Part shown: positions 3,881-26,699 of the stretch, piece after piece
Layout of the letters: every line of letters begins with the position of its first letter
Position numbering within the stretch: the first letter of the stretch is position 1
Source: Myxococcales bacterium
Lineage (GTDB): Bacteria; Myxococcota_C; UBA6777
Length of the DNA: 34,324 nucleotides
Assembly: GCA_027005175.1 (NCBI GenBank)
Contig: JALTMC010000836.1
Location: 1-34,324, forward strand
Reading direction: 5' to 3'
Notes under the pieces: model-generated
Told to the model about the DNA's origin: nothing
What the model saw: the letters and a program-made list of their open reading frames with translations, nothing else
The model's database searches: none
Program-made: the position numbers and the translations under genes

Positions 3881-3937
3881 GATACCATAGCATGAGGATT
3901 TACGAAAAAAGACCGTAAATCCTCATGCTATGGTATC
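3881..3937. repeat. Perfect 24-bp inverted repeat with 9-nt loop
   Basis: GATACCATAGCATGAGGATTTACG (3881-3904) / CGTAAATCCTCATGCTATGGTATC (3914-3937). Confidence 0.95.
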
Positions 3938-3996
3938 TGCTATAGAAGGGGACTTTCGACCGGTGTTAACGGGCTTCTTCTCCTACTTGCAGAAAT

Positions 3997-4168
3997 TCAT
4001 GCTTTTGGGCTTGGTATGGAAGGACTGTCTCTGATAGGTGGTTCGAAGCTGTCATGCTTTTGGGCTTGGTATGGAAGGACTGTCTCTGATAGGTGGTTCG
4101 AATCTGATTTCTATGCTTGAAACAGGTGGTTCGAATCTGATTTCTATGCTTGAAACAGGTGGTTAGAA
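3997..4168. repeat. Compound tandem repeat (2x 51 bp with period 55; 2x 33 bp) anchored on the cyoE stop codon
   Basis: 51-bp copies at 3997-4047 and 4052-4102; 33-bp copies at 4091-4123 and 4124-4156. The 12-mer AGGTGGTTMGAA occurs at 4036, 4091, 4124 and 4157; the last copy spans the cyoE TAA. Confidence 0.95.
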
Positions 4169-5080
4169 GATGGTTCCCATGATCAAAGCTCCGAAGAGGA
4201 GGACGAGGTAGAGGAGGGTATGCAAGAAAAATCGTTTGGCTTGTTTCACAGGTTGAGTGCTCTGCAACCAAGAAAGGCAAGAGCCAAAGATCCAGCCTCC
4301 AAGCATAAGTGCGGGGGCTCCGTACCACCAACTCGCTTGCTGCCATGCGATGGGTAGAAGGCTTGCTAGAATCAGACCCAGGGTGAAAAGGAAGACGACA
4401 TATCGCGTCGCTTTCATCCCATATACACCTGTGAATGTTGGGATATTTGCTTTTGCATACTGAGATCGCAGTCCCATAGCAAGAGCGAGAGAGTGAACAA
4501 GTTGCCAAAAGATCATAATAATGAACAGAGAAGAGCCTTCGAGAGAGATACTGTTTGCGGCAGCGGTCCAGCCCATGAGAGCGGGAATTGCGCCAGGCAA
4601 TGTACCGATCACAAAGGCAAGTGAAGTGCGTTTTTTGAGGGGGGTGTAAATCAAAGTATAGCTAACATAAGCGAGCGCACACAAAAGACCTGTGAGAGGA
4701 TTGACAGCAAACCATAGAATCAAGAACCCTGAGAGGCCGAGTCCTAGGCCAGTAAGCAGAGCTGTACGAGGAGGCAATCGATGAGCAGGCAATGGACGAT
4801 TCTGGGTGCGCGGCATCATCGCGTCGGTATTTCTCTCCAAGAACATATTGAGCGCACAGGCACCTCCGACAGAGAGGCCTGTGCCGATCAAAGTTGCCAG
4901 GGTCAGCCACATCGAGATCGGAGTGGTTGCTAGCCAAAGACCTCCGCCAGCGGTCAGCACGGAAGAGAAAACAATCCCAGGCTTTGTTAATGCAATCACA
5001 TCACGAGTCCACTGTTTCACGGATGAACGTGAGGATGTGACATGGGTGGATGGGCTCAAAGAAGTTGTGTTCAATGCCAT
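4163..5080 (-). CDS. cyoE: Heme O synthase (protoheme IX farnesyltransferase, CyoE/CtaB)
   Basis: LTKPGI, ALNMFLERNTDAMMPRTQNRPLP, YTPLKK, GAIPALMGWTAA and FWQ..H motifs; multiple TM helices; overlaps the upstream gene by 10 nt. Confidence 0.95.
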   Translation of the reverse strand: MALNTTSLSPSTHVTSSRSSVKQWTRDVIALTKPGIVFSSVLTAGGGLWLATTPISMWLTLATLIGTGLSVGGACALNMFLERNTDAMMPRTQNRPLPAHRLPPRTALLTGLGLGLSGFLILWFAVNPLTGLLCALAYVSYTLIYTPLKKRTSLAFVIGTLPGAIPALMGWTAAANSISLEGSSLFIIMIFWQLVHSLALAMGLRSQYAKANIPTFTGVYGMKATRYVVFLFTLGLILASLLPIAWQQASWWYGAPALMLGGWIFGSCLSWLQSTQPVKQAKRFFLHTLLYLVLLFGALIMGTIF

Positions 5081-7164
5081 TGGAAACCTCGCACTTTGTT
5101 AAACAGAACCACTCTTCGGTAGGAGGGACGGAATCGGATGTTTCGCGATGTTTTGTAGTTCCATTCTTTGGAGTTCGGCGTGTCACTGATCTCGACACGT
5201 ACCTTGTGGAGACCTGCCTTCACCGGAACCCGTTCGATCGCAATACTGTTGCCATCTTCAAAGATGCCTTTGGGACGAAAGGAGCGTTGCGTGACGATCG
5301 CTCCGTCTACCCAAACACGCAGACGCACGGGAACACGTTTGCGCTGAACCTGCTTCATTCCACGCATATGTGGCAAGAGCTTTTCCTGTTCCTTTTTGGA
5401 TAAAGCCTTGGCTTTTATAAGCTGCCCTGGGTGTTTGAAGGATACAACCAGCATGGGGCGTTGGTCTGCCGCGCTCTGGTATGTTGCATCGCTGAGTCCC
5501 CATATCAGCCAGCCAAGCCCCATCAACACTACGATGGTCACGAGGCCAGCACCGATACGTTGGAAGGAGTCTTTTGGTGGTGCTTTTGTTTGTTCTCGAA
5601 AGGCCTTTGCTGTCTTTAAGAAAGCCTCGGGCTCGGAACGCTCAAAAGAGACGTGAAGCAGGGGTTTCCCATTCAACTTATCTTCGCGAAGTTGGGGCTC
5701 ACGTTTGCCTTCGATTCGTTGTGTGGTCCAGGTATCTCCAAGGCGACAGGCAGCATCGGGACCACAGCCCGCAACCAAAACCCCGTCTGCACCGTGACGA
5801 ATGGCTCTTTCGATGGTGAGCATATGAACCCAACCTGAGCATGGAACAGGACGTACACGGTACCCTGGTAGCTCATCACACAATCCTGTAACTTCATCGA
5901 CATGGAGAGAGCTTGCTGCAGATTCAGCGCAAACAAACGCCACCATCGGGGCATCCTTCTCTTTGGACTCATCCAGCCAACCGTCCATTTGTTTGCGTAC
6001 ATCAAGAGGCTCTAGCGCAGGAAATGTCACTCCATAAGAGTCGCATGAGCCAACACAAACCCCACACCCTACACATTTTGCAGGATCAACTTGCGCAAGC
6101 AGAGGATACTTGCCTTCTCTTGGAATCATGGAGATCGCGTTATAAGGGCAGTCTGTATAACATGCATTGCAAGCATTGCATCGAGAGGCGTTAATGACGG
6201 CAGCAGGGGCGCGTCGTCGGGCAAGCCACCATGGCATACTTAGAGCGATTAATGTTACTCCCATACTTAAGGCCCAAAGGGTGCCTCCTTGCAGTCGCTC
6301 TGTGAGATAAATGGGCAGCATATAGAACCAATCCATACCGAGGGTTGACGGCACAGCTTGCATCGCAGCGGGTTTGGATGAAAAAGCCGGAAAGAACAGT
6401 GAAATCGCGACAAGGCTTATACAAATTGCAACGGTCATCCGGGAGTTGGTGAGAAACCGCGACAAACTTAAACGAGTGATATGAATCCAGATCAGGACTG
6501 CGAAGACCAGAGGGATGAGCATATGAAAAAAGAAGATAATAAAGAACAGCAAGCTATTGACGCTGCTATTGACCAGAAAAGAACGAGAGAGAGGATCTGC
6601 AAAGATAGGCAAGACATCGAGAAGTTTGGATGTACCCACAGCGATTTGAGCGGCGCGATCATCCCAAACCAGCCAATATCCGGTCCAACCTACAAACCAC
6701 AAGGTCGCCATGGCAAGGATTCCTGTGATCCAGGCTAGCCATTGGGGGCCTGTTATTTTTCGGGCGAGGATAATCTGTATCGCATGCAGGAGTACAAATA
6801 ACATACAAGCGTCTGAGCTATACCTATGAAGAGAGCGTAGAAGTTGGGCTAGCCATGGAGACTGCTTCATCATCTCCAATGAAGTATAAGCTTTGTGTAC
6901 ACTGGGAACATACCAAAAGAGTAGCAGGACCCCTGTGATTGCGGCAATGATAAATGTGACATTGGCAATAGCACCCAACTGCGTTAAAGGGTGCAATGCC
7001 TCTGGAATCCATTTTCCAACCATGGTCCGAAGCCACAGCCAGCCGCGCTCCAAAAAGCGCAACACAGATTCTCCCCATACAAGGGTACCAGGTCGTGTCT
7101 GCTCTACTTTATGTTGCGAACGATGGACCATCCTATTTTCAGATGGTGCGACGACTTCTTTCAC
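5071..7164 (-). CDS. Cytochrome b-like domain fused to 2x[4Fe-4S] ferredoxin, MvhD/FlpD-type [2Fe-2S] domain and a C-terminal extracytoplasmic domain
   Basis: Two H-x13-H heme pairs (HRYSSDACMLFVLLH; HMLIPLVFAVLIWIH), GWTGYWLVW, DWFY at the PEWY position; CNACNACYTDCP and CVGCGVCVGSC; MvhD-like AFVC...PCSG...GADGVLVAGC-x5-C; then a TM helix and a soluble domain. GTG start with SD AAGGGAG. Confidence 0.85.
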   Translation of the reverse strand: MKEVVAPSENRMVHRSQHKVEQTRPGTLVWGESVLRFLERGWLWLRTMVGKWIPEALHPLTQLGAIANVTFIIAAITGVLLLFWYVPSVHKAYTSLEMMKQSPWLAQLLRSLHRYSSDACMLFVLLHAIQIILARKITGPQWLAWITGILAMATLWFVGWTGYWLVWDDRAAQIAVGTSKLLDVLPIFADPLSRSFLVNSSVNSLLFFIIFFFHMLIPLVFAVLIWIHITRLSLSRFLTNSRMTVAICISLVAISLFFPAFSSKPAAMQAVPSTLGMDWFYMLPIYLTERLQGGTLWALSMGVTLIALSMPWWLARRRAPAAVINASRCNACNACYTDCPYNAISMIPREGKYPLLAQVDPAKCVGCGVCVGSCDSYGVTFPALEPLDVRKQMDGWLDESKEKDAPMVAFVCAESAASSLHVDEVTGLCDELPGYRVRPVPCSGWVHMLTIERAIRHGADGVLVAGCGPDAACRLGDTWTTQRIEGKREPQLREDKLNGKPLLHVSFERSEPEAFLKTAKAFREQTKAPPKDSFQRIGAGLVTIVVLMGLGWLIWGLSDATYQSAADQRPMLVVSFKHPGQLIKAKALSKKEQEKLLPHMRGMKQVQRKRVPVRLRVWVDGAIVTQRSFRPKGIFEDGNSIAIERVPVKAGLHKVRVEISDTPNSKEWNYKTSRNIRFRPSYRRVVLFNKVRGFQWH

Positions 7165-7230
7165 TCTCGTATTCTCCCTTCTTCTATGTAACAGGAAGGA
7201 TCATTGATCCAACAAATGTTACATCTTTCG

Positions 7231-7278
7231 GATTGGCACGCCAGCTTTACCGTGTCTTGGATGACTGGCATGTCAATC
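7231..7278. repeat. Imperfect 14-bp inverted repeat between sco and the cytochrome b fusion gene
   Basis: GATTGGCACGCCAG (7231-7244) / CTGGCATGTCAATC (7265-7278), 2 mismatches. Confidence 0.6.
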
Positions 7279-7352
7279 TTGTTGCGTTATCGATCCTACA
7301 TGGGTCCATGCTCTCTGATTCATGGCCCATCCAAAGGCAAACGGGTTGCTTA

Positions 7353-8327
7353 TTAACTTTGAGTCTTTGATGTAGGGGTGGTCTGACCTTCGCGGAGAAG
7401 CAATTGCAAAGCCTGAGTCAGCCAGGATTCTTGCCGCTTTCCAAGCGTAAAACGATAGGCGATCTTGCCTTTGCGATCGATCAGGATAAACAGGTTCACA
7501 TGATCGATAACCCCTGTTTTTGGATTTCGCTTTCGGGCAAAATTGAAAGAATCAAGCACGCGATTCACATCGCTAACTTCCCCTGTTAGCAAGTTAAAGG
7601 TCGGAGCTTTGACTTTGTGAGCTTTTGCCATATTGCTCAATCGTTGGGTGGTATCGCGTTTGGGATCAAGTGTGATCGCGAGCACATGAACATTCTTCTG
7701 TTGTTTTGGGGGCAATGTACGCAAGACTCGCTTGATCTGGGCGAGAATCATTGGGCACGTATAGCCACAAGAGGAGTACACTCCTGTCACCATCACAACC
7801 TTGCCCCGAAACTGCTTTAAAGACACCTTCTGTTTTTCTTGGTTGAGCAATGTAAAAGAGGGTGGAGTATGAGTTGTACGCAGAGCTTCCGCAGGGAAGG
7901 CTTTTTCTTTTTTGGAAGAAGAGGCTGGCTTGTATACCAGCGCAAAGGTCACTCCTGTTGAACTTACCAGAAGAAAAGACACCGCAATATAGGGGAGGAA
8001 AGGACGAACCCCTCGACGCAGCTGGACAAACAAGCGCCCCCCCCAAACAAGAAGTATCACTCCCACAAGCACAAATGTGCTGGCAAGCATAGAGAACACA
8101 TAGCCCCAGTCGAGATTGCCAGTGGTAGGGTTGTAACCAAAACACCACACTTTAAAATCTTGAACCATGCCTCCCCATAAAGAAGATGTGCTGGGAAGAA
8201 GTAAAACACCAAACATCAAGACATTGAGAAAGACAACTGTAGACAATGCAAAGGCAGGAAACTGCCATCCATTAAAGAAACGTTCTACCACTCCGAGGCT
8301 CTCAAAGCTATGTTTTTCTGAGCGCAT
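7353..8327 (-). CDS. SCO1/SenC copper chaperone with an extended N-terminal membrane region (about 3 TM)
   Basis: CGYTCP (CxxxC) plus IDH His ligand; thioredoxin-fold motifs FTLLNQ, ITLDPKRDT, LIDRKGKI. Start placed at ATG 8327 behind GGAGG (the track starts at 8360). Confidence 0.9.
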   Translation of the reverse strand: MRSEKHSFESLGVVERFFNGWQFPAFALSTVVFLNVLMFGVLLLPSTSSLWGGMVQDFKVWCFGYNPTTGNLDWGYVFSMLASTFVLVGVILLVWGGRLFVQLRRGVRPFLPYIAVSFLLVSSTGVTFALVYKPASSSKKEKAFPAEALRTTHTPPSFTLLNQEKQKVSLKQFRGKVVMVTGVYSSCGYTCPMILAQIKRVLRTLPPKQQKNVHVLAITLDPKRDTTQRLSNMAKAHKVKAPTFNLLTGEVSDVNRVLDSFNFARKRNPKTGVIDHVNLFILIDRKGKIAYRFTLGKRQESWLTQALQLLLREGQTTPTSKTQS

Positions 8328-8387
8328 TACGACCCCTCCCCAAGAGAAAAAAGAAAGCAAAGAGAAAATTGGGACCTTATCCTGGTG

Positions 8388-8534
8388 CGTATGGGCTGAA
8401 CCCTCACTATGAGGAAGAAAAAACCGACGAAAATCGGCTCAACTCTCTCGTTTTTCCTGAGGGACAAAGTGTTCAGAGTGCCCCGAAGGGATAGTTCAGA
8501 GAACCTCAGAGTGGGGCTTCAGCCCCACGGATAT
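8388..8534. repeat. Dispersed ~145-bp REP/REPIN-like palindromic element, copy 1
   Basis: Inverted termini TGGGCTGAACCCTCACTATGAGG ... CCTCAGAGTGGGGCTTCAGCCCCACG; internal CCGA..TCGG and CCCGAAGGG hairpins; colinear with 26403-26547. Confidence 0.9.
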
Positions 8535-8583
8535 ACAGGATATTTCGCTATATCCATTTCTTTTACAGGCTGCCAGGTTCCCA

Positions 8584-8641
8584 TCATAAGAATGTCATCC
8601 GGATTTTTCATAAGAATGTCATCCGGATTTTTCATAAGAAT
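8584..8641. repeat. 24-bp tandem repeat, 2.4 copies
   Basis: TCATAAGAATGTCATCCGGATTTT at 8584 and 8608, partial copy at 8632. Confidence 0.95.
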
Positions 8642-8647
8642 ATAGAG

Positions 8648-8713
8648 CTAGCCCGCATGATTCACGTTGTTTGTCGCAAGCCGTAGCAGAGTGTTTGTGA
8701 ATCATGTGGGCTA
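8648..8713. mobile_element. Small MITE-like element with 17-bp inverted termini, copy 1
   Basis: TAGCCCGCATGATTCAC (8649-8665) / GTGAATCATGTGGGCTA (8697-8713); a related copy lies at 18457. Mobility is inferred only. Confidence 0.55.
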
Positions 8714-8717
8714 TGGA

Positions 8718-10436
8718 TTATCGGACGTGCCAAACGTCGGCCAAAGCCTTCCAGTTGGCAAAGTAATAGACCACAAAGCAAACAAAGAAGATGCCGACAA
8801 GAACGACAGTTCCCGGGATTTTAAAGCGTCCATCTTTGGGAGTGTGATCTGTGGTATAAGCCTCAAGGGATTTTTTATCCGCTTCTGCGTCTTGCCAGGA
8901 AGGCATCTTTTGGCCAGCGATGGAGCGGCCAAAAAAGACGGTCAGAACGACAGGAAGGATGTACATCAATGCAGCGATAAACAGAATACTTCCACCAATA
9001 CCAACCAATGCTAGCATGGTGTGAGCACCTGATTCAAAGCCAGCAGCCATCGGTGCGCCAGTAAATCCAACATCCCAGTGACGGCGTGGAACACCGTAGG
9101 AACCAGCGAAGGACATACCGATCGACATCAGCAAGAGCCCAACCGCAAAAACATAGGGCTGCAATCGAACAACGCCTTTAAAGTAAAAGTCTTTTTGAAA
9201 GATCAGAGGGACAACATAATAAGTTAGCCCCATAAAGGCCAGGGTTGTTCCACCAACAACGGTGGCATGAAAGTGACCGGGAATACGGAGGGTGTTGTGT
9301 GCGATGATGTTGATCTGGTGAGTACCCAGAGTAACACCTGTGATACCACCGATAAACCCGAAAATAAGGAGGGAAAGGAAGAAGGCAGAGAAGCCTGGAT
9401 CGCGCCATGGTGCGTTGCTCAACCACCCAAAGAGACCTTTGGTAAAGCCTTTGGAGCGCTGTGCTACTTCGACGGATGCTGGAACAGTGAAGCCATGAAT
9501 CATCGAAGCCATCACTGCGAGATACATCGCATACGAGGTGTTCCACATCTTCCACACAGAGCCAACGCCTGGATCAACCAGGAGGTGATGGGCGGAGGCG
9601 AGGTTGATGAACAGAATGTAGAGTACAAAAGCTGCACGACAAACGGTCTCATTAATGGGCTTTGCGCCAGTGGTCAGGGTTCCCAAGAAGTACCAAACAG
9701 CAACCATAGCGCACACATTGATCTGTTGGGATTGGTGTCCAAGGCCCCACCAAAGCAAACGATATACACCCGCATCAAAGTTTTTGATCCAACCCAACGA
9801 CCAGAAGTAGGCAGGGATCATCACAGAAGCACCGTGTAGGAGGGTGACCACGGCGATGATCGCAGCGGCCAAAGCCCCAAAAGCAACCAAAGGCATGGAG
9901 CCTTCGTAGGTTTTGTCGCGACGTGCAATATAGACCGTTGCGAAAAAGTTAAACACGCCGATCAGCGTGCCCACGGAAAATAAGATAATTCCCAAATAGA
10001 AGTTGGGATCGGCTTTGAGAGGAACATACGATGTCATTAAGACATCGCCCTTACCCATGAAAACGATGACTTCTACCATGACAGCACCTACGGCCATCAT
10101 CAGAAAAGATACCCAGGCGATCTTTCTTGAGAAGAGTCGACTGTTAAGTAAGGAAGTTCCAGCAAAATAGAGTATGGCGATTTCCATAAAGATGATCCAG
10201 AAGATCAACATACTCAAACCATGTACTGTCAGCAGCCGGTAGTACCAAACTGCGTTGAGCAGGTGCACAGCAGACCAGCGTGTTAGTGCAATTAAAACAC
10301 CAACAGATGCACCGATTAAAATACAAACCACCGCCAACACAGCGTTGAGGCGAATAAAGAATTGTGCATCAAGACATACCGATAATCCGGTAGTGTCACA
10401 CGTACGAGAACGTCCAGTTAGAAAGTTACCCATCAT
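8718..10436 (-). CDS. Heme-copper oxidoreductase subunit I, B-family-derived, eNOR-type nitric oxide reductase
   Basis: All six His ligands are present: TVHG, WGLGHQSQQ, SAHHLL, GHFH; also HNT and PRR. Position H+4 of the first CuB His is Gln, not the cross-linked Tyr of O2 reductases, matching the eNOR signature as I recall it. Confidence 0.85.
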   Translation of the reverse strand: MMGNFLTGRSRTCDTTGLSVCLDAQFFIRLNAVLAVVCILIGASVGVLIALTRWSAVHLLNAVWYYRLLTVHGLSMLIFWIIFMEIAILYFAGTSLLNSRLFSRKIAWVSFLMMAVGAVMVEVIVFMGKGDVLMTSYVPLKADPNFYLGIILFSVGTLIGVFNFFATVYIARRDKTYEGSMPLVAFGALAAAIIAVVTLLHGASVMIPAYFWSLGWIKNFDAGVYRLLWWGLGHQSQQINVCAMVAVWYFLGTLTTGAKPINETVCRAAFVLYILFINLASAHHLLVDPGVGSVWKMWNTSYAMYLAVMASMIHGFTVPASVEVAQRSKGFTKGLFGWLSNAPWRDPGFSAFFLSLLIFGFIGGITGVTLGTHQINIIAHNTLRIPGHFHATVVGGTTLAFMGLTYYVVPLIFQKDFYFKGVVRLQPYVFAVGLLLMSIGMSFAGSYGVPRRHWDVGFTGAPMAAGFESGAHTMLALVGIGGSILFIAALMYILPVVLTVFFGRSIAGQKMPSWQDAEADKKSLEAYTTDHTPKDGRFKIPGTVVLVGIFFVCFVVYYFANWKALADVWHVR

Positions 10437-10442
10437 CGTCTC

Positions 10443-10973
10443 CTATTCCACAATGATCTTGCCGGTCATGAGATGATGGCCAATTCCACAGAATTCATTA
10501 CAAATCACTTGGAATGTACCTTTTCGCGTCGGCTTTATCGTAAGAACGTGGTCATAACCCGGTAGGATGTGAAAGTTCATATTAATCGGCAAAAGAGAAA
10601 ATCCATGTTGCAAGTCTGCCGAAGAGATATGCAGACGATATGTCTGGTTTACTTTCAGTTTAATGATCGGATACCACATCCACATTCGACCCAGGAGGTA
10701 AGCGTTACCGCCCGGCTCAGGCTGAACAATAGGTATCCCCAGCTTTTTATCCTTTCCTACTTTGTGAGTTTTTACCCAGCGATTCACCCGTTTGACAAAG
10801 TCTTTTGGCTTCACTCGATACGACTCACCTGAACTTGTTTGTTTGCCTTTAAAATGCCAAAATGGCATCGCAGCAAACATGACCATGCACCACGTTAGTG
10901 CTATTCCCACCCACATGGCTTCGGCACCTTTGGGAGCGTGGAACCATCCTTTTTTGGGAGGATGTATACTCAT
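10443..10973 (-). CDS. Heme-copper oxidoreductase subunit II (CuA), single TM
   Basis: D.QHGF and CNEFCGIGHHLM CuA motif; one N-terminal TM as in B-family subunit II. ATG at 10973 follows AAGGAG (the track starts at TTG 10991). Confidence 0.92.
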   Translation of the reverse strand: MSIHPPKKGWFHAPKGAEAMWVGIALTWCMVMFAAMPFWHFKGKQTSSGESYRVKPKDFVKRVNRWVKTHKVGKDKKLGIPIVQPEPGGNAYLLGRMWMWYPIIKLKVNQTYRLHISSADLQHGFSLLPINMNFHILPGYDHVLTIKPTRKGTFQVICNEFCGIGHHLMTGKIIVE

Positions 10974-11162
10974 CGCGTTCTCCTTCTCCAACAGATTCCA
11001 GAAAGATAACAGCTCGTTGTAGTCGAAGAAGGCAAAAGAGAAGATGCAGTACCGCGAACACGCAGCAACAATATTGCCTTTTCAAAGCCATCAACCATCA
11101 ACGAACAATTGTAGATCTCACATTATGAACGACTTAAAAAAATCGATGATTTGCCAACTTTT

Positions 11163-11384
11163 TTATGGCAATTTGGCAGGTCCCATCATCCACATATCAA
11201 TCAGACCCCACACTGTGTACGATAGGACTGGAATCACAACACCCAGAAAGAGGAGAAGCCATGGATTGTCCATGAGCTTTTGCAAGGGATGCACCTCGGC
11301 TTCCGGGGGCTCCGGAGACATACCCTGCTCCACCACCTCCTTGGCCGGTTCTTCCTGTGGAGACTTCTTTGACTGACTCATCAT
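11163..11384 (-). CDS. Small single-TM subunit of the oxidoreductase cluster (subunit IIa-like)
   Basis: LMDNPWLLLFLGVVIPVLSYTVWGLIDM hydrophobic helix; GGGAG upstream of the ATG; lies immediately upstream of subunit II. Confidence 0.75.
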   Translation of the reverse strand: MMSQSKKSPQEEPAKEVVEQGMSPEPPEAEVHPLQKLMDNPWLLLFLGVVIPVLSYTVWGLIDMWMMGPAKLP

Positions 11385-12753
11385 TTCTCTCCCATGAATC
11401 GAGTAAAGGTAGTACAGGCTTTCGACGACGCCAAGCTACAATGACCAATGACAGAAAAAGCAACCCTCCCACCACCGCGACGAGCCCACCCAGTCCCATA
11501 AACCACATCCCTACTTGCTCACTTGTGGAGCGAATGTTTTGTTCACGGCCATAGATCTTACGGGCCATTTTCGCATATCCAAAACCTAGCGCAAACACCA
11601 CTTGTCCTACGCCAAATACAACAGGTTGCCATCTCGCCAAACGCTTCATCCTAGCGCTGGACCAATCCCATCGAAACTCCTGACACAACAAATAGGTAAC
11701 TGTCATAAAAGACACCGTTACCGCACCGATCGCCGCGTGATAATGCGCGGGAATCAACGTACTTGAACTGCGAATCATCGCACCCAACACAAAGCCCAAG
11801 ACCGTGAGGGATGCACTCGCTAGAAAACCCCACAAATAGGGTGCTTTCAAAGACTCTTTCTTTCTATTTCCCGCCCGAAGTCCACGAAAAATCGCCAACA
11901 AACACGCCAGCAGGATCAAACTGGCGATAGGGAAGATGCCCCATCGCATTAATATCGTAAATCTCGGATAATAAGTGGCTGTTGTTGTTCCCTGCCAAGC
12001 CCACCAAGGGGCCACACATGCTGGTGCCAAAAGAAGGCCAAACAACACTCTCGCCCAACGATGCGACAAAGGTGAAAAACCCAGAACACGATCCAGGAGC
12101 AGCACCCACACAGAGAGCATCGCTGCCACACTCGCAACCTGCAAGACATGCCCACCTCCCCAAAACACCAACTCATAATAAGAGCCTGCGGACATACTTG
12201 TAGGTGTGGTCCACCATGCACCCATAAAAGTGAACATCGCCAACAAAAATGCGAACGCTGAAGCACGCAAACCCACACGAGTCGCAGCGGGTAGCTTTAA
12301 AAATCCTGAGTCACCCGAACTCTCGATCCACCGCTCCCACTTCATAAAGGTCCCGATGACAGCGATCCCAAATACTACCAAACCCACAACGAAAAGAGGA
12401 TGATCCAGAGCCGGGATATAGTTGGATAAGACCGGACGCACACCTGTGATCGCACCACAAGACACAAACAAAAGAACCCCGAGAAGACCAAGCAGTACAG
12501 AACGCTGCCCCCCTTTTCCCGAAGATTGCGCAGGTAACGCAAGAAACAAGGAAGCGAGAAAACTATACAACCAAACTCCCAAAGCCAGGTTGACATGAAT
12601 CACAAGGCAACGACGCGCAAACAGGGGATCATTGATCCACTCATTCAATACAGGCAAACGCCCAATCACCAAGATGATCGAGAGCGTCCCCGCTAAAACC
12701 AGAGAACCTACCGCCAACATCAACCATCCTTGCGAACCCTGTCGATCTCCCAT
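11197..12753 (-). CDS. Degenerate COX1-fold membrane protein (subunit I paralogue lacking the CuB His-His pair)
   Basis: About 12 TM; IHVNL, FWGGGHVLQ, IPAHYH and ARK occupy the positions of the subunit I heme/CuB motifs, but there is no HH pair. The last ~60 codons overlap the small-subunit gene. Confidence 0.8.
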   Translation of the reverse strand: MGDRQGSQGWLMLAVGSLVLAGTLSIILVIGRLPVLNEWINDPLFARRCLVIHVNLALGVWLYSFLASLFLALPAQSSGKGGQRSVLLGLLGVLLFVSCGAITGVRPVLSNYIPALDHPLFVVGLVVFGIAVIGTFMKWERWIESSGDSGFLKLPAATRVGLRASAFAFLLAMFTFMGAWWTTPTSMSAGSYYELVFWGGGHVLQVASVAAMLSVWVLLLDRVLGFSPLSHRWARVLFGLLLAPACVAPWWAWQGTTTATYYPRFTILMRWGIFPIASLILLACLLAIFRGLRAGNRKKESLKAPYLWGFLASASLTVLGFVLGAMIRSSSTLIPAHYHAAIGAVTVSFMTVTYLLCQEFRWDWSSARMKRLARWQPVVFGVGQVVFALGFGYAKMARKIYGREQNIRSTSEQVGMWFMGLGGLVAVVGGLLFLSLVIVAWRRRKPVLPLLDSWERNDESVKEVSTGRTGQGGGGAGYVSGAPGSRGASLAKAHGQSMASPLSGCCDSSPIVHSVGSD

Positions 12754-12839
12754 TCCTGGCCTCTCCTTCTTCCCAGATTGATCTCTTCCCAGAAAGACTT
12801 CGCTCTCTCGAAGCCCTTATCGAAAATAATTTAATTCAC

Positions 12840-12895
12840 TAGACAAAAATCTCTATAGACTATAATATCCAACTATCAATAGACCGTCAAGTCTT
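12840..12895. promoter_or_regulatory. Candidate Rrf2 operators (TAGA-N8-TCYW x3)
   Basis: TAGACAAAAATCTCTA (12840-12855), TAGACTATAATATCCA (12856-12871), TAGACCGTCAAGTCTT (12880-12895). Confidence 0.5.
12862..12890 (-). promoter_or_regulatory. Putative sigma70 promoter for the eNOR-type cluster
   Basis: Minus strand TTGACG (12890-12885), 17-nt spacer, TATTAT (12867-12862). Confidence 0.65.
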
Positions 12896-13023
12896 TTTTG
12901 ATCGGAATAGAGATATTTTGAGTCCAGCAAGAGGAAGTGTATACTTCAGAGGAAAACTGTCCATGACGAAGATCAAGTGAGAACGGCGAGTGTGGATATG
13001 AGAGAAAGTAGAGGAGTTGCTTG

Positions 13024-13431
13024 ATGCATTGGAATCAGACAGTCGTTTACGCGCTGCGTGCGATGAGTTATCTGGCGATCATGCCTTTGGAACAGCCTAT
13101 TCCGGCGAGGAGTCTTTCTGAGAAGACAAGCATACCTGTGCATTATCTGTCGAAAATTATGCGTCGGATGGTTACAGCAGGTCTGGTTGTTTCCCAGAAA
13201 GGGCATGGAGGTGGGTTTATTTTGGCGAAGCCTCCCAAAGATATCAGTATGCTTGATGTCTTACGTGCTGTGGATTACAACCCTGAGGCTCAGCCTTGTG
13301 CGTTTGGTTGGGAACGATGCAATGCGGTCAATCCTTGCCCTCTTCATTATTACTGGAGTCAACTCAAGTCGAGTCATCTGGAGTGGTCGGAGAATACGAC
13401 ACTGGCAGATATACGAGAGCAATCGCAATAA
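13024..13431 (+). CDS. Rrf2 family Fe-S transcriptional regulator
   Basis: YALRAM, YLSKIM, LV.S.KG.GGGF.LAK, and C-x6-C-x5-C-x2-H (CAFGWERCNAVNPCPLH). GAGGAG lies 7 nt before ATG 13024. Confidence 0.93.
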   Translation: MHWNQTVVYALRAMSYLAIMPLEQPIPARSLSEKTSIPVHYLSKIMRRMVTAGLVVSQKGHGGGFILAKPPKDISMLDVLRAVDYNPEAQPCAFGWERCNAVNPCPLHYYWSQLKSSHLEWSENTTLADIREQSQ

Positions 13432-16504: not shown

Positions 16505-18460
16505 ATGAAGTGGCAAACGTTTGACAATACATCCTCCAAAGCTCTTTCTCAGGCCAGGGCACCCACACAGTCTTCTATGGAAGAAGTTACCGAAACATCG
16601 ATGGTTGCGAACCCACCCCCTATATCCGCTTCTGAAACATCGACAACCACACCGACTTCTTTTGCTTCACACAGTTCCTGTCCAAATTGCCAGTTTACAC
16701 TCCAGGCCAGACACCAAAGTCTGACCTTTTGTCCAGATTGTAGCTTCCCTATTCGTATCCTGGAAGGAAAGTACCGCCTGGACAAAGCCCTTGCTGAGGG
16801 AGGGTTTGGCGTTGTTTATATCGCTTCTCAAGCTCAGTCTTCAGCACCCTGTGTTGTGAAAGTCATTCGGCCAGAGGTGTTTGAGCTACCTGGCATGGAA
16901 GCACGCTTTCGTAGAGAGATCCGGGTAACCAAGCAGATCGCCCATGAGAACGAACATATCATCAATATCTTCGACCATGGAGAAGAGAAGGATATCGGCT
17001 GCTACTATGTGATGGAGTTACTTCAGGGTGAGAGCCTTGAAGAATATTTGTACAAGAATAAAGCGATGAGCTTTCAACAAGTCTTTCATATCTTTGCTCA
17101 GATGTGCGATGCCCTCTCTCTTGCTCATGCCAAAGGCATTATTCACCGAGATCTCAAACCAGACAACATCTTTTTGATCGAGAAAGAGGGTGACCCCTGC
17201 TTTGTAAAGATCCTTGATTTTGGTATTGCCAAACCCCTCGATGGAACAGTCAATGTTGGCCTGACAAAGGGGGCCTTGGGAACACCGGCATATATGTCAC
17301 CCGAACAATGCACCAACAGCACAATCAGTGCTGCCACTGACATCTATGCGCTGGGCATCATCTTGTATGAGTTGCTCACAAGAACTCTACCCTTTGAAGA
17401 TAGTGCGATGGCTTCTCTTTTGCTCAAACATCTCACAGAGGTACCTGAATCCCTGCTGGAGCGCCGACCGGACTTGCACTTTCCTAAAATGCTTGACCAG
17501 GCTCTGCAGATCGCTCTGGCGAAAAAACCTGAAGCTCGCTTTCACAGTGTTCAAGAGTTTTGGACAGCTCTGGCACCTTACTCACATCTGGAAGGCTTCG
17601 CGACTGTTCTTCCGAGGGATGCAGCAAAAGAAAAAGAGTTGGCTCCAACCAGACAGCCTTGCGAAGCAGACCGAGCCTTTGCCCCAACAGGAACCTTTCA
17701 TTCACCCGATGTCTCTCTCTCTGACTCTCTCAGCGCGACAGTGGTTGGAGAAAAAGTCAGTGGTCCACATCGTCCGGTAACAATCCAACGGACATCTTCT
17801 TCTCAACTTCCCTTGTTTGCTCTACTTGGTCTTCTGCTTTTGGCTCTCAGTGTAGGAGGAGTCTATACCTTCAAAGATAAGTTCTTTTCCAATTCCAAGA
17901 AGCCTCCTTACACCCGTCAAAACAGACCACACAAAGCCAAAGTGGTGCTTCTCTCTCACCGCAAGCCTTCCAAGCCTGAAAGAAAAATTGCCACAACTCC
18001 TCGGGTCGTACCCACTCTTCCCAAAGAGCAAGAGCCTGTGATCGACGATACAAAAGTGGAGCCCAGAAAGAGGATAAGACGTCGACTTCGACGACGAAAA
18101 CGTACCCAGAAAAAGAAGGCCCGAAGCAAGGTCATCCCCATGGGGATAGCAGGTCGAAAATGTGGAGTAAACCCACCCGGTAAGGTGAAAATTTGGGGGC
18201 AGTTTAAGCGTACAGGCATTAAGGTCAAATTCACCTTTTCAGGATGTGGTTCCTGCCGGGTGAGGAGGCGTAGAAGAGGCTACTGCCTAACGCTACCCAA
18301 GTCTCGCAAAAGCATCAGTGTTCGCATTAAAGCCTCAGGATTCCAATCCTGTGCTCATCGAATTTCTACAAGCTCACAATATGTCCGTTGGACATTCAAA
18401 GTGGAGGAGCCCGATGATCTCGTAGATGAAAATTACAATTGTTTGAGAGTTCTTCGCTAG
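16505..18460 (+). CDS. Membrane Ser/Thr protein kinase (zinc ribbon - kinase - TM - Arg-rich linker - 6-Cys domain)
   Basis: CPNC..CPDC; AEGGFGVVY, VVKV, HRDLKPDN, DFG, GTPAYMSPEQ, DIYALG; TM LFALLGLLLLALSVGGVY. Confidence 0.93.
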   Translation: MKWQTFDNTSSKALSQARAPTQSSMEEVTETSMVANPPPISASETSTTTPTSFASHSSCPNCQFTLQARHQSLTFCPDCSFPIRILEGKYRLDKALAEGGFGVVYIASQAQSSAPCVVKVIRPEVFELPGMEARFRREIRVTKQIAHENEHIINIFDHGEEKDIGCYYVMELLQGESLEEYLYKNKAMSFQQVFHIFAQMCDALSLAHAKGIIHRDLKPDNIFLIEKEGDPCFVKILDFGIAKPLDGTVNVGLTKGALGTPAYMSPEQCTNSTISAATDIYALGIILYELLTRTLPFEDSAMASLLLKHLTEVPESLLERRPDLHFPKMLDQALQIALAKKPEARFHSVQEFWTALAPYSHLEGFATVLPRDAAKEKELAPTRQPCEADRAFAPTGTFHSPDVSLSDSLSATVVGEKVSGPHRPVTIQRTSSSQLPLFALLGLLLLALSVGGVYTFKDKFFSNSKKPPYTRQNRPHKAKVVLLSHRKPSKPERKIATTPRVVPTLPKEQEPVIDDTKVEPRKRIRRRLRRRKRTQKKKARSKVIPMGIAGRKCGVNPPGKVKIWGQFKRTGIKVKFTFSGCGSCRVRRRRRGYCLTLPKSRKSISVRIKASGFQSCAHRISTSSQYVRWTFKVEEPDDLVDENYNCLRVLR

Positions 18461-18512: not shown

Positions 18513-20423
18513 CTACTTTACCCGATAAGTACAATTGTAGTTCTCATCGGCCAATGCATCGGGCTCCTCTACTTTCAGTAACCATCGTAAACTTCGGACA
18601 GAAGAGCGCAGTCGATAGATACAGGTTTGGTGCCCATCTGCTGACACTTGTACACGAGCCTGCTTGAGAGACTTCGGTATCCACAAACAATATTTACCGG
18701 ATTTTTGCTTCACACGACATCCAGAGCAGCCTACGATTCGGATACGTGCCCGACGCGGCTTTTGCATCCGAGTTACAACCCACCGATGTGTTGGTGAACC
18801 CGCTCCACAAGGTCCCTCATCACGAGTCGCAGCGTTATGTCGTGTTCGTACTTGCCGATGACTTCGTGTCTTGCGTCGAAGACTTGTCCGACGACGAATC
18901 CGGTGTCCTCGATATTTCCGCCGTGTTCGCACTCGCCGATGGCTTCGTGTTTTGCGTCGAAGACTTGTCCGACGACGAACCCGGTGTCCTCGATGTTTCC
19001 GCCGTGTTCGCACCACTGGTGGAGCTAGGCGGGTGGGCTCGACTTGGATGGACTCCATGGAGGAATCTGGAACAGAAAGTGGTAACCTCCGCAGAACAGG
19101 CTGCTTCTTTGCCAAAGCAACCAGGCGTGGTTTTTCCGTTCGTACCCGATTTTTGATGGGCTTACCACGCAAAGGCTTGGATGATAGGGAAACTTTGCCT
19201 CCTCCTCCAGATCTCAGTTGGTCTTGAAACAAAAAAGCAGTGACGCCAAGTACAACAATCATAAGAATTGTAACAACAAGCCAAAGGGAGCGGTTTCCCT
19301 GAGAGATCTCTGTCTGTTCACTTTGAGAAAGAATTCTTTCTCCTGTGGGCAATCCTTGAGAGTTTGAGGTTTGTTTGGAGTAGGGCAAGGTCCCTGTCCC
19401 TGTTTCGGGGGAGAATGCTCCAAACTGGTTGCGCTCTCTAGAGACCTTACCCAGCATGGGAAGCTGCAACCCTCCAGGATGGGTTCTAACGATCGCATTC
19501 CAAAAATCATCGAGAGTTGGGTAGCGTTGTGCTGAAGCTTTGGACATAGCACGCTGCAAGACTTCGGACAGCCCTACAAGATCAGGTCGCCATTGCGTGA
19601 GGGGGATCGTCTCTTGCATCAAATGGGCTGTCATCATTGTCAGCATGGTTTGGCTATCCAATTGCCCACCATCCATTCCATAAGGATTGCGAGCACTGAG
19701 CATCTCATACAGAATAATAGCCAGAGAGTACTGGTCAGAGCGAGCGTCAATCAAGCCGTTGTTGCACTGCTCTGGTGACATATAGATGGGAGTACCCAAG
19801 ACCCCTTTGGTCAGCTTTGTGGCTGAATCAGCCTCATCCCGAGCGATACCAAAATCAATCACTTTTACAAAGTTCTGCCCATCACGTTGTACCAAATAAA
19901 TGTTGTCGGGCTTTAAATCGCGATGCACAATTTTCTGTTGGTGTGCTGCACTCAATCCCTTACAAACTTGATAAAAGATATGCAGCGCTGTTTGTGCTGG
20001 CAAGCCCTCTTCTTGTGGCATGATATCAGTCAGAGGAGTTCCTCGCAGAAACTCCATAACATAGTAGTGACCGAGGCCTTTCTCTTCACCAAAGTCATCA
20101 TAGATTCGTACGATATGTTCATTGCGCTGTGAAAGTGCTGCTGTTACCTGTACTTCTCGCCGAAATCGTTTCTCCATTCCTGAAGTTTTAAAAACCTCAG
20201 GTTTGATCACTTTAACCACACGTTCTGTGTCGTAATCTAGGTGTATATGCTGAGCCAGATAAACCTGCCCCATACCACCCTGTGCTAACTCGCGCTCCAA
20301 CTTGTATTTGCCTGCAACCAGCATCAAAGGAAATCGACATTGGGGACAAAGTCGAAAACTATCCGTATTTTTATAGCTACACTTGGGACAAACTTCAATT
20401 GCTACAGACATAAAAACGCTCAA
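18513..20423 (-). CDS. Membrane Ser/Thr protein kinase, paralogue of 16505-18460
   Basis: CPKC..CPQC; AQGGMGQVY, VVKVIKPEVF...GMEKRFRREV, HRDLKPDN, DFG, GTPIYMSPEQ; TM; ends KVEEPDALADENYNC like its partner. Alternative start is ATG 20411. Confidence 0.93.
   Translation of the reverse strand: MSVFMSVAIEVCPKCSYKNTDSFRLCPQCRFPLMLVAGKYKLERELAQGGMGQVYLAQHIHLDYDTERVVKVIKPEVFKTSGMEKRFRREVQVTAALSQRNEHIVRIYDDFGEEKGLGHYYVMEFLRGTPLTDIMPQEEGLPAQTALHIFYQVCKGLSAAHQQKIVHRDLKPDNIYLVQRDGQNFVKVIDFGIARDEADSATKLTKGVLGTPIYMSPEQCNNGLIDARSDQYSLAIILYEMLSARNPYGMDGGQLDSQTMLTMMTAHLMQETIPLTQWRPDLVGLSEVLQRAMSKASAQRYPTLDDFWNAIVRTHPGGLQLPMLGKVSRERNQFGAFSPETGTGTLPYSKQTSNSQGLPTGERILSQSEQTEISQGNRSLWLVVTILMIVVLGVTAFLFQDQLRSGGGGKVSLSSKPLRGKPIKNRVRTEKPRLVALAKKQPVLRRLPLSVPDSSMESIQVEPTRLAPPVVRTRRKHRGHRVRRRTSLRRKTRSHRRVRTRRKYRGHRIRRRTSLRRKTRSHRQVRTRHNAATRDEGPCGAGSPTHRWVVTRMQKPRRARIRIVGCSGCRVKQKSGKYCLWIPKSLKQARVQVSADGHQTCIYRLRSSVRSLRWLLKVEEPDALADENYNCTYRVK
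18841..19013. repeat. Intragenic 81-bp tandem repeat (about 2.1 copies) encoding an Arg/His-rich 27-mer
   Basis: CGTGTTCG recurs at 18841, 18922 and 19003; peptide VRTRRKHRGHRVRRRTSLRRKTRSHRR. Confidence 0.95.
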
Positions 20424-22106: not shown

Positions 22107-23984
22107 ATGACGACTGATTATACTTCCACCATAACATGTTCGTATTGCCGAGAAGATGTCCCAATACAGACGCATTGCACGATGTGCGGAGCCCCTTTGG
22201 ATACGCACGTCGAAGATCCACTGGGTCATCGTGTGGGCAATTATATCCTGGAGCGTCTGTTGGCAGAGGGTGCTAACGGACGTTTGTATTGCGCTAAACA
22301 TATCGCCACAGAGCAGTTGGTGGCATTGAAGTTACTGCATTCCAAGCTCGTGAATCATTCCAAGTCCATTCGTCGGTTGCGGCGTGAGGCGGAGATCGGT
22401 ATCCGTTTGCAGCATCCGAATGCTGTCAAACTCTTTGAGTTTGGTGTTGATCCTGATTTTGGGCTCTTTTTGGTGATGGAGTTGATCGTGGGGCAGACCC
22501 TATTTCAGCTTCTGGCAAAAGAGCAGTGTTTGGAGCCTCAGCGAGCCCTCTCCATCGCTCTACAGACCTGTGAAGTTCTGGACAAAGCGCATTATCTGGA
22601 GATTGTACACCGCGACCTAAAACCCAGCAATATTATGCTGAAGTGGCACCCCACAACCAAGGACTTCGTCAAAGTTTGTGACTTTGGCATGGCCAAGTTG
22701 GAAACCTATGACAACATGGAGACCAAGCTCACTGTGCCAGGTACGGTTCATGGAACACCAGGTTATATGGCACCTGAGCAATGCAAAGGAGAAGAGACTG
22801 ACACCCGCACCGACATCTATGCCATGGGTGTTATCTTATACCAGATGCTCACTGGACATCTGCCTTTTCATGGAAACAATGTGATCCAGTTGCTTCAACA
22901 ACAGTTGTTTCACAAACCTCCCGCGTTGCAACAAATGGCTCCCCATCTTCAGCAGTTTGAATCTATTCATTTGCTTGAGCAAGTTGTATCTCGATGCTTG
23001 GACAACTCTCCCGACGCACGTTACCCCAACGTTGAAGCACTGCGCCAAGAGTTGGTGTTGACTTTGCCTTCGTATACACCTCTTGAGATCTTGCTGGAGG
23101 ATCACTCTATCGTCGAACAGGGTTCGTTAACTCCAACACCTCCAGCATACTTTCCCAGACAAATGATCTCGCTCAACATGGAGCAACAACAAGAAGCCCA
23201 AAAACGAACAGTGGGGGCTCCACAACAGACCTTTTTGCCGGATCAGACACTGTTTCAGGAGGGGCAAAGTCCCACCCGCTTTTATCTTATTCTGGAGGGC
23301 GAGGTTCGAATGGTGCGACATCATGAACAGTATATTGTCGAGCTTGATCGCCTCGGACCCGATCAGTTTTTGGGTCTCAGCGCTTATTTTTCTCACTCCC
23401 CTTATACCATCTCTGCTGTGGCTGCAGAGCGCACCAGGCTTCGTTTGATGGATTCGAACTTTTTAAACCGATTGTTTGCTCAAGAACCTCACGATCAATC
23501 TTTATTTCATGCTTTGTATCACGAAGAAACTCTTCAACTCTTGCTGCGCTATTCTCCTTTCTTTGCATCTCTTCCACCCGATAGTCGGTATGAATTGATT
23601 CAGAAAGGAGAGCTTCATTCGTTCGGCCCCAAACAAGTTGTGGTCAACATGAACCAAAAGCTCGACTCTCTGTACTTGATTGCCTCAGGTAGCATCACCC
23701 AAAAAACAAAGCTAGCCGAGCAAAGCTCAGCATTCAGTAAGCTGACCTACAACATGGGAGAAACATTTGGTGAAACTCAAATTCTTTCTCAACAGCCGGC
23801 TGATGCAACCTATGTTACCCAAACCAACACTGTGCTTCTTGGCATCCCTCTCGCAGTCTTGAACTTCTATATGCAGCACTTTCCCTATCTTCGTCACTCT
23901 CTTGAGCAGCTCGCTCAGACTCGACTTGCGGAGCGACTTCAGTTACAAGCAGACCTTCAAGTTACATCGATCGATCAGTCTTAA
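22107..23984 (+). CDS. Cytoplasmic Ser/Thr kinase with N-terminal zinc ribbon and two C-terminal cNMP-binding-like domains
   Basis: CSYC..CTMC; VALK, HRDLKPSN, DFG, GTPGYMAPEQ; LFQEGQ...FYLILEGEV and LYLIASG...GETFGE; no TM. Confidence 0.9.
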   Translation: MTTDYTSTITCSYCREDVPIQTHCTMCGAPLDTHVEDPLGHRVGNYILERLLAEGANGRLYCAKHIATEQLVALKLLHSKLVNHSKSIRRLRREAEIGIRLQHPNAVKLFEFGVDPDFGLFLVMELIVGQTLFQLLAKEQCLEPQRALSIALQTCEVLDKAHYLEIVHRDLKPSNIMLKWHPTTKDFVKVCDFGMAKLETYDNMETKLTVPGTVHGTPGYMAPEQCKGEETDTRTDIYAMGVILYQMLTGHLPFHGNNVIQLLQQQLFHKPPALQQMAPHLQQFESIHLLEQVVSRCLDNSPDARYPNVEALRQELVLTLPSYTPLEILLEDHSIVEQGSLTPTPPAYFPRQMISLNMEQQQEAQKRTVGAPQQTFLPDQTLFQEGQSPTRFYLILEGEVRMVRHHEQYIVELDRLGPDQFLGLSAYFSHSPYTISAVAAERTRLRLMDSNFLNRLFAQEPHDQSLFHALYHEETLQLLLRYSPFFASLPPDSRYELIQKGELHSFGPKQVVVNMNQKLDSLYLIASGSITQKTKLAEQSSAFSKLTYNMGETFGETQILSQQPADATYVTQTNTVLLGIPLAVLNFYMQHFPYLRHSLEQLAQTRLAERLQLQADLQVTSIDQS

Positions 23985-26402: not shown

Positions 26403-26547
26403 TGGGGCTAGAACCCCCATTCTGAGGAAGAAAAACCCGACTGAAGTCGGCTCAATCCTTTCGTTTTCCCTGAAGGGCAAAGTGTTTTGAGTGTCCCGAA
26501 GGGGTAGTTCCGAGATCCTCAGAGTGGGGGTTCAGCCCCACGGATAT
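26403..26547. repeat. Dispersed ~145-bp REP/REPIN-like palindromic element, copy 2
   Basis: TGGGGCTAGAACCCCCATTCTGAGG ... CCTCAGAGTGGGGGTTCAGCCCCACGGATAT; colinear with 8388-8534. Confidence 0.9.
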
Positions 26548-26699
26548 TCAAAGAACAAACAATGGTGTTGTGTGACTTCTCAGACAGCGAGAAAAGCTGT
26601 CAGCGACCCCGACCCCATCCGGACTTCGTCCTGTAGATTCTGCCAGGTTCGCGATCGGGAGGAGGTTCCCATGACCACAACATAAGAGGTTTTTTCCTG

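Follow-up and report, generated by a model that had tools for sequence, protein, structure and literature searches.

Nitric oxide (NO) reductases of the eNOR family are defined by a conserved glutamine in subunit I at the site of the cross-linking tyrosine of oxygen reductases, and cytochrome c oxidase is the name under which their genes are usually, and wrongly, annotated (PMC8756737). As reported in PMC11214002, these enzymes are relatives of the B-family and have CuA-type subunits, and S309 of the ba3 oxidase is conserved among them; many eNOR operons hold CtaA, and the eNOR of Rhodothermus marinus, which contains heme As, reduces NO and not O2. An 'eNOR scaffold protein' is listed as common operon content in a 2026 preprint (10.64898/2026.01.22.701106). 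Here we describe a gene cluster at positions 4163-13431 of a 34,324-nucleotide stretch of DNA (hereafter the window; contig JALTMC010000836.1 of the assembly GCA_027005175.1, deposited as a Myxococcales bacterium). With a probability of roughly 0.8, this cluster is an operon for a CuA-containing NO reductase of the eNOR family, derived from B-family (ba3-like) oxidases. The catalytic assignment is made because of sequence features and of the existence of a characterised family member.

The motif WWGLGHQSQQ of subunit I ends in Q237 and Q238, both invariant in 12 aligned relatives, as are the six histidine ligands H72, H234, H283, H284, H388 and H390. In a phmmer alignment, Gln238 (His+4, helix VI) stands at the place of the cross-linked Tyr237 of the Thermus ba3 oxidase; the partner printed in this alignment was PDB 4g71, the V236N mutant of the Thermus enzyme, whose N-Y pair lies opposite Q237-Q238. 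Among PDB sequences, the same search found 21 different matches at E <= 0.001: 19 of the ba3 type (E 1.4e-43 to 1.4e-41), one caa3 chain (3.4e-05) and one mitochondrial chain (1.8e-04), with no cNOR, qNOR or cbb3 chain at this threshold. By sequence, subunit I is thus closest to the B-family oxidases. Three residues, S311, T317 and Y249, align with the K-path residues S309, T315 and Y248 of ba3 and are all invariant. The tyrosine position used as an alternative in the C-family, six residues before the His-His pair, is occupied by I277 in the alignment. In subunit II, the CuA residues H123, C158, E160, C162, H166 and M169 (numbered from the Met at 10973) were invariant in 59 sequences, and the predicted CuA site is complete.

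The earlier note had described a B-family-derived eNOR in which all six histidines are kept and Gln replaces the cross-linked Tyr. These points are borne out by the invariant ligands, by the alignment of Gln238 with ba3 Tyr237, by the CuA site and the ba3 enzymes as closest relatives, and by a single Gln-bearing clade in the tree (SH-aLRT 99).

This tree contained 48 rows and was calculated with an IQ-TREE quick search, with support from the Shimodaira-Hasegawa approximate likelihood ratio test (SH-aLRT) only. The rows comprised the representatives of at least 440 amino acids (31 of the 150 listed) minus P0122, P0128, P0240 and P0250, which were truncated or had ligand regions missing, together with close relatives, paralogue sequences and the A-type and cbb3 subunits of the host genome. 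All 14 GHxxQQ rows, the window included, formed the one clade just mentioned, with four GHxxQY rows (33-43% identical) beside it. The GHxxQQ rows, the GHxxQY rows and the paralogue family fell together in a clade with a support of 95, and the 12 GHPxVY B-type rows lay apart. The tree placement foreseen in the earlier note therefore holds in so far as the GHxxQQ clade is separate from the B-type O2 reductases, among rows none of which carries a family name and which include no named references.

Relatives of subunit I are numerous, closely similar to one another and taxonomically widespread; that of the cultured Fodinibius halophilus is 68% identical. More than 8000 clusters matched it at E <= 1e-10, and the best 120 were all 65-92% identical and bore source names of cytochrome c oxidase or cbb3-type subunit I. 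In the library of representatives at 50% identity, the number of matching proteins was 1388 at E <= 0.001 and 169 at E <= 1e-30. A scan with one genome per species confirmed relatives at at least 596 places (596 of the 600 matched stretches listed). The best of the matches listed were in metagenome-assembled genomes (MAGs) of Calditrichota (75-76%), and MAGs of Rhodothermales hold relatives with 68-71% identity. By record title, the relatives belong to Calditrichota, Rhodothermales, Balneolaceae, Spirochaetia, Lentisphaeria and Myxococcota, and further to Acidobacteriota, Verrucomicrobiota, Planctomycetota, Nitrospiria and Pseudomonadota.

Two groups in the tree deserve a separate mention. The GHxxQY rows P0124, P0126, P0127 and P0149 combine an eNOR-type Gln at His+3 and the equivalent of H314 with a Tyr at the cross-link position, and these proteins may be intermediate between oxygen and NO reductases. 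The rows P0169, P0178, P0182, P0221, P0246 and P0258, which are full-length relatives of subunit I, formed a separate clade with a support of 100, and in their alignment a Tyr appears at the first His of the His-His pair (YH) and of the helix X HxH motif (YxH); this would reflect either a ligand replacement or a misalignment.

The host assembly comprises 7.38 Mb in 934 contigs, with 93.7% completeness and 5.3% contamination. Outside the contig of the window, it encodes NapA (989 bits; cut-off 904), NirK (355.5 bits; cut-off 296.3), a clade I NosZ (870.8 bits; cut-off 625) and a protein with a NirS-type d1 domain (421.9 bits), as well as CtaA on contig C778 (343 bits). All the genes that the earlier note had proposed to look for elsewhere in the genome (nirS, nirK, nosZ and ctaA) were hence present on other contigs, in addition to NapA. 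An A-type and a cbb3-type oxidase are also encoded by the genome; NarG was not found in it, and a PF00115 search of the genome returned no other full-length NO reductase candidate. Since NapA, NirS, NirK and NosZ are present, the eNOR would be the missing NO-to-N2O (nitrous oxide) step of a full denitrification and, judged by gene content, the organism is able to run the full path from nitrate to N2 with NapA, NirS/NirK, NosZ and eNOR. The hidden step of NO respiration or detoxification suggested in the earlier note is accordingly consistent with both the sequence features of the cluster and the gene content of the genome, with the activity as such predicted from sequence. Once the eNOR is recognised, the whole route from nitrate to N2 is seen to be encoded in one member of a six-species phylum, and the product of the eNOR step, N2O, is a greenhouse gas.

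The description of the host as a probable myxobacterial relative is only loosely right: its phylum in GTDB consists of six species genomes, and the RelA/SpoT protein of the window is 42-44% identical to named proteins of Myxococcota and Geobacter alike. Of the six genomes, only that of the host has the gene for the eNOR subunit I; the five others gave none. Contamination or a recent transfer was considered and rejected, with a composition of contig and cluster that is typical of the genome and no sign of foreign DNA: the G+C content of the contig is 48.7%, compared with 49.2 +/- 1.1% for contigs of at least 10 kb, and the tetranucleotide distance of the cluster is 0.0098, compared with a mean of 0.0099 for 9.3-kb chunks.

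The neighbourhood of related genes was counted by tblastn with the window proteins against the 80 best loci, whereby only the loci with enough flank were included. All 72 loci with a flank of 1200 nt or more downstream of subunit I had SCO, and the cytochrome b/Fe-S fusion was present in 64 of 65 (3400 nt or more downstream), the sole locus without it being L097 from a Nitrospiria genome. A separate paralogue of subunit I was found in 57 of the 69 loci with at least 2300 nt upstream, in 56 of these 57 directly upstream and on the same strand. Among the 52 loci with full context, heme O synthase occurred in 30 (upstream in 13 and downstream in 17) and the Rrf2 gene in 20 (divergent and upstream in 17). 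The small single-helix open reading frame (ORF) gave tblastn matches in 72 of the 80 loci, with orthologues mostly of 46-50 aa and no Pfam match, and its true start is probably an internal Met. By its gene content, the cluster is a typical and well-conserved operon of the eNOR kind; what is new is its recognition in a rare lineage.

An even sample of 201 Myxococcota genomes was also searched for subunit I (E <= 1e-100) and the fusion (E <= 1e-30). Subunit I was present in nine genomes (one of them, G172, unpublished), and the fusion in exactly the same nine and no other. The paralogue was found in these nine and in two more, G034 and G073. The latter two hold a homologue of the paralogue with 39-41% identity, without subunit I at E <= 1e-100 and without the fusion, so the paralogue family occurs in other contexts as well. 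In the genome G009, the paralogue lies about 36 kb from the eNOR, and with the window query it was not found in the Rhodothermales MAG G007. A separate observation concerns the locus L004 (positions 1060-1932; G000:C334:16671-17321), where two neighbouring short ORFs of 143 and 146 aa show weak similarity to the N-terminal portion of oxidase subunit I and the two regions of similarity are separated by a TAG; either a gene fragment or two small proteins may be present there.

The first of the two large partners, the fusion protein, consists of a bc1-type diheme cytochrome b with six helices, two predicted [4Fe-4S] clusters, an MvhD/FlpD-like domain, a further single transmembrane helix and a periplasmic beta-sandwich, with a predicted local distance difference test score (pLDDT) of 92.4 and a predicted template modelling score (pTM) of 0.90 for the model. 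The histidines H113, H127, H214 and H228 for hemes bL and bH (helices B and D), with the 14-residue spacing, were invariant in 63 of 63 fusion sequences, and the eight cluster cysteines were invariant in the same set. Where cytochrome b has PEWY, the fusion has a DxWY loop (D278, Y281, P284), in which D278 was invariant and Y281 conserved in at least 90%. Three cysteines of the MvhD-like domain were kept in 53-54 of the 63 sequences. The first ~300 residues superimpose on the bcc cytochrome b (7q21_B) with a Z-score of 23.1 and a root-mean-square deviation of 3.0 over 258 aligned residues. The number of helices and an Arg-rich segment behind helix six lead us to infer that the Fe-S domains are cytoplasmic and the C-terminal beta-sandwich is periplasmic. 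The most likely role of the fusion is that of a transmembrane link between the quinone pool and cytoplasmic Fe-S clusters, in the service of the eNOR.

The C-terminal domain of the fusion gave no Pfam match at E <= 10 and resembled only generic beta-sandwich folds (best Z 8.9). Its origin as a degenerate subunit II was discarded, with an hhalign probability of 0.4 for the transmembrane helix plus beta-sandwich against subunit II. A replacement of CtaA by either the paralogue or the fusion was likewise unsupported, as PF02628 (CtaA) was present elsewhere in nine of the ten eNOR genomes tested.

The second partner is the paralogue of subunit I. An hhalign comparison of the two gave a probability of 99.8, an E-value of 1.3e-29 and 20% identity, and the AlphaFold model of the paralogue (pLDDT 87.5, pTM 0.85) shows the twelve-helix subunit I fold, with the ba3 subunit I as the best PDB match (TM-score 0.65). 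Residues 471-518 are disordered in the model, with a pLDDT below 50, and this stretch overlaps the small ORF. Invariant in 47 paralogue sequences were H53, W198, G201, H202, H337, Y338, H339 and the R398-K399 pair, whereby H53, H202, H337 and H339 fall on the helix II, VI and X histidines of subunit I. The CuB/FeB site is incomplete: only H202 is kept, and residues other than His stand opposite H283/H284 in all 47 sequences. Because the heme histidines are kept and the His-His pair is lost, the paralogue probably binds two hemes without a catalytic second metal. Most likely, it is a helper in heme handling or in assembly, or an auxiliary redox subunit.

The divergent regulator of the cluster is a member of the Rrf2 superfamily which, by profile scores, is outside the NsrR and IscR equivalogs. 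The motif C-x6-C-x5-C was present in 23 of 23 orthologues beside eNOR loci. A 19-base imperfect palindrome with the consensus rGACTTGACnGTCyATTGA overlaps the -35 hexamer of a sigma-70-like promoter, which was the best of four promoter-like sites in 12700-13100 (mean of 0.6 sites in shuffled sequences). A close copy of the palindrome occurred in seven of 20 Rrf2/eNOR intergenic regions, and with a weight matrix built from these seven seed sites, nine of the 13 non-seed regions scored above the 95% shuffle level (6.9), five of them also above the highest value reached by shuffles (16.5). There were no exact inverted repeats with a 6-nt seed between 12740 and 13030. With the palindrome predicted to cover the -35 box, the arrangement agrees with a repression that is lifted by a signal, which would be NO.

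Taken together, the proposed mechanism is as follows. Subunit II would take electrons from periplasmic donors at its CuA site, with copper loaded into this site by SCO, and the cytochrome c donors of the eNOR need not be encoded in the cluster. In subunit I, Gln238 would stand for the Tyr required by O2 reduction. The farnesylated or formylated heme would come from heme O synthase acting with the CtaA of another contig. For the Rrf2 protein, which is probably a repressor with an Fe-S cluster and a response to NO, the conserved palindrome over the -35 box would be the binding site.

Several observations weigh against this reading. The nearest sequences outside the family (39-43% identity, the four GHxxQY rows) keep the cross-link Tyr, so the change from Tyr to Gln is a narrow difference. 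The groups of the tree were set by the motif, with the motif columns left in the alignment and with quick-search SH-aLRT values only. Among the best 120 matches of a Rhodothermales homologue there was no Rhodothermus marinus protein and no named reference of a biochemically characterised eNOR (R. marinus, M. magnetotacticum). The K-path differs in part from that of ba3, with T312 replaced by H314 and Y244 by V245, and a compensating Tyr in subunit I is excluded by alignment only. CtaA was found in none of the 80 loci, in a one-query tblastn with the host's own CtaA that could miss a divergent CtaA. The Rrf2 protein scored 44.1 bits against the NsrR equivalog and 70.4 bits against the IscR equivalog, below the respective cut-offs of 182 and 207.55.

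The alternative that survives best concerns the two large partners rather than the enzyme itself: the fusion and the paralogue might be maturation factors only, which give redox support for the insertion of copper, iron or heme A and stay outside the electron path. Their genes have those of SCO and heme O synthase as neighbours, some lineages do without the paralogue (12 of 69 loci lack it, and the window query did not find it in G007), and 13 of 52 loci have CyoE as the immediate upstream neighbour of the paralogue. On the other hand, the heme pairs, the eight cluster cysteines and the Qo-like DxWY loop kept in 63 fusions are more typical of a working respiratory module, and CtaA is encoded elsewhere in nine of the ten eNOR genomes tested. 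A maturation role is therefore a possibility of some weight, to which we nevertheless give less than even odds. A role of the fusion in quinone-linked electron transfer is still preferred over it. In its most far-reaching and rather improbable form, the fusion would be a Rieske-less, quinol-oxidising Qo-type module obligatorily tied to the eNOR, in a supercomplex where one electron of quinol goes to the NO/N2O couple of very high potential and the other crosses the membrane to low-potential cytoplasmic Fe-S clusters, with the paralogue as an extra subunit for redox or heme delivery. If true, such an electron-splitting fusion would be a new quinol-based coupling of NO reduction to the production of low-potential reductant. 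A literature search found no functional study of either large partner. The company of two large, strongly conserved membrane redox proteins is a trait of the eNOR in many phyla and not of this window alone.

A second alternative accepts a true eNOR and assigns it to NO detoxification under an NO-sensing repressor, instead of energy-conserving respiration. The divergent Rrf2 gene with an Fe-S motif and the operator over the promoter do resemble genes of NsrR-controlled detoxification, and the window holds no other denitrification gene. However, NapA, NirS, NirK and NosZ are encoded in the genome, the PF00115 search of which gave no other NO reductase candidate, and the K-type path residues S311, T317 and Y249 are kept; moreover, respiration and detoxification can coexist. 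A purely detoxifying enzyme is for these reasons unlikely. Least probable is that the protein reduces O2, as a variant B-family oxidase or as a bifunctional enzyme, and is no dedicated NO reductase, because the best PDB matches being ba3 oxidases, the CuA subunit and part of the K-path, the Tyr in the nearest outgroup and the routine annotation of the family as cytochrome c oxidase are opposed by the Gln at the cross-link site in the window and in all 14 clade rows, the lack of a Tyr at the C-family alternative site, a characterised family member without O2 reduction (as reported in PMC11214002), and the A-type and cbb3-type oxidases already present in the genome. A dedicated eNOR that takes part in denitrification hence remains the preferred reading of the cluster.

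The features of the cluster, called from an ORF listing and from Pfam and NCBIfam domain scans, are collected in Table 1. The seven co-oriented genes and the divergent Rrf2 gene reported in the earlier note were all recovered at the same positions, the seven on the minus strand. Its further claim that the cluster lacks genes for cytochrome c, Rieske protein and CtaA is in agreement with the searches made here: no CxxCH motif was present in any stop-to-stop frame of at least 50 aa across the whole window, the domain scans gave no Rieske or CtaA domain among the cluster proteins, and no Rieske gene was found by domain scans of the window, to which this search was confined. There were zero Rfam family matches in the window.

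Table 1. Positions of the genes and regulatory features of the eNOR cluster in the window.
Feature	Position	Strand	Characteristics
Heme O synthase (CyoE/CtaB)	4163-5080	minus	TIGR01473 251.6 bits (cut-off 210.3); 10-nt overlap with the end of the fusion gene
Cytochrome b/2x[4Fe-4S]/FlpD(MvhD) fusion	5071-7164	minus	697 aa; Pfam and NCBIfam matches
SCO/SenC copper chaperone	7353-8360	minus	PF02630 86.7 bits; N-terminal membrane region; motif CGYTC
Gap between subunit I and SCO	8361-8717		Miniature repeat copy, tandem duplication and terminator-like hairpin
eNOR subunit I	8718-10436	minus	572 aa; PF00115 217 bits
eNOR subunit II, cupredoxin	10443-10991	minus	PF00116 28.8 bits (cut-off 22); CuA motif CNEFCGIGHHLM
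Small single-helix membrane ORF	11163-11384	minus	Overlaps the 3' end of the COX1-like gene
COX1-like paralogue of subunit I	11197-12753	minus	518 aa; weak full-length match to PF00115, 25.9 bits, below the cut-off of 34.8
Sigma-70-like promoter	12862-12890	minus	TTGACG-17-TATTAT; 10 of 12 consensus positions
Operator-like imperfect palindrome	12876-12894	minus	Found by cross-locus comparison
Rrf2-family regulator, divergent	13021-13431	plus	PF02082 107.2 bits; TIGR00738 108.4 bits

The gaps on either side of SCO contain miniature dispersed repeats. The gap between subunit I and SCO gave 83 blastn hits in the genome and the region 7165-7352 gave 20, at identities of ~77-92% (about 80-85% for the former) and with each region's own match included in the counts; one further copy lies at 26405-26550 of the window. 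The gap between subunit I and SCO also has a short tandem duplication of ~24 bases at 8583-8640 and, adjoining, a terminator-like hairpin at 8421-8440, and with both elements present the operon could be transcribed as two units. An internal direct repeat (3889-4162; 78% over 152 nt) lies just past the heme O synthase gene on its downstream side, and a gene for a PD-(D/E)XK family transposase (984-1955) lies two genes past the end of the operon. On the other side of the cluster, three genes for eukaryote-type Ser/Thr kinases are grouped (16505-18460, 18513-20423 and 22107-23984), and one of the three is fused to two cyclic-nucleotide-binding domains. Near the kinase genes are those for a DUF6178 protein (27737-29530), MutY, TruA and RelA/SpoT.

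Among known systems, the cluster can be set against the ba3 oxidase of Thermus thermophilus. In the ba3 operon, as here, the small subunit is followed by subunit II and this by subunit I, and subunit IIa is encoded in ba3 operons at the place of the small single-helix ORF. The ba3 structures (1EHK, 1XME) are the best solved relatives of subunit I (E 7.8e-43), with a CuA entry site in both enzymes. The main difference lies in the cross-link: ba3, which reduces O2, has Tyr237 cross-linked to His233, whereas subunit I of the window has Gln238. As to the fusion, its N-terminal 300 residues share the fold and the four invariant heme histidines with cytochrome b of the bc1, bcc and b6f complexes, but the core is limited to six helices and has Fe-S, MvhD-like and beta-sandwich parts attached. 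As opposed to these complexes, the window has neither a Rieske nor a cytochrome c1 gene. The regulator has in common with NsrR and IscR a winged-helix Rrf2 domain, three clustered cysteines and a divergent position beside an NO-metabolising operon, but scores below both equivalog cut-offs.

The closest correspondence is with the eNOR operons themselves. The family as described (Hemp and Gennis, 2008, as cited; Murali et al., 2024, PMC11214002) shares the Gln at the Tyr site, the six histidines and the B-family ancestry and, according to PMC11214002, also the CuA subunit II, the conserved K-type path serine, an operon with heme O synthase and SCO, and a denitrifying host. In contrast, CtaA is absent from the cluster here, and the paralogue and the fusion are present, which the main text of PMC11214002, as searched for operon content, does not describe. 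The operon of Ferrigenium straubiae (10.64898/2026.01.22.701106), as reported in the preprint, shares eNOR II, eNOR I, heme o synthase and sco1, as well as an 'eNOR scaffold protein of unknown function' and one gene whose product combines cytochrome b and Fe-S. The cytochrome b genes of that organism were called 'rather unusual', one of them having FAD and NADH domains, while the fusion described here has an MvhD-like end and is near-universal among the related loci (64 of 65).

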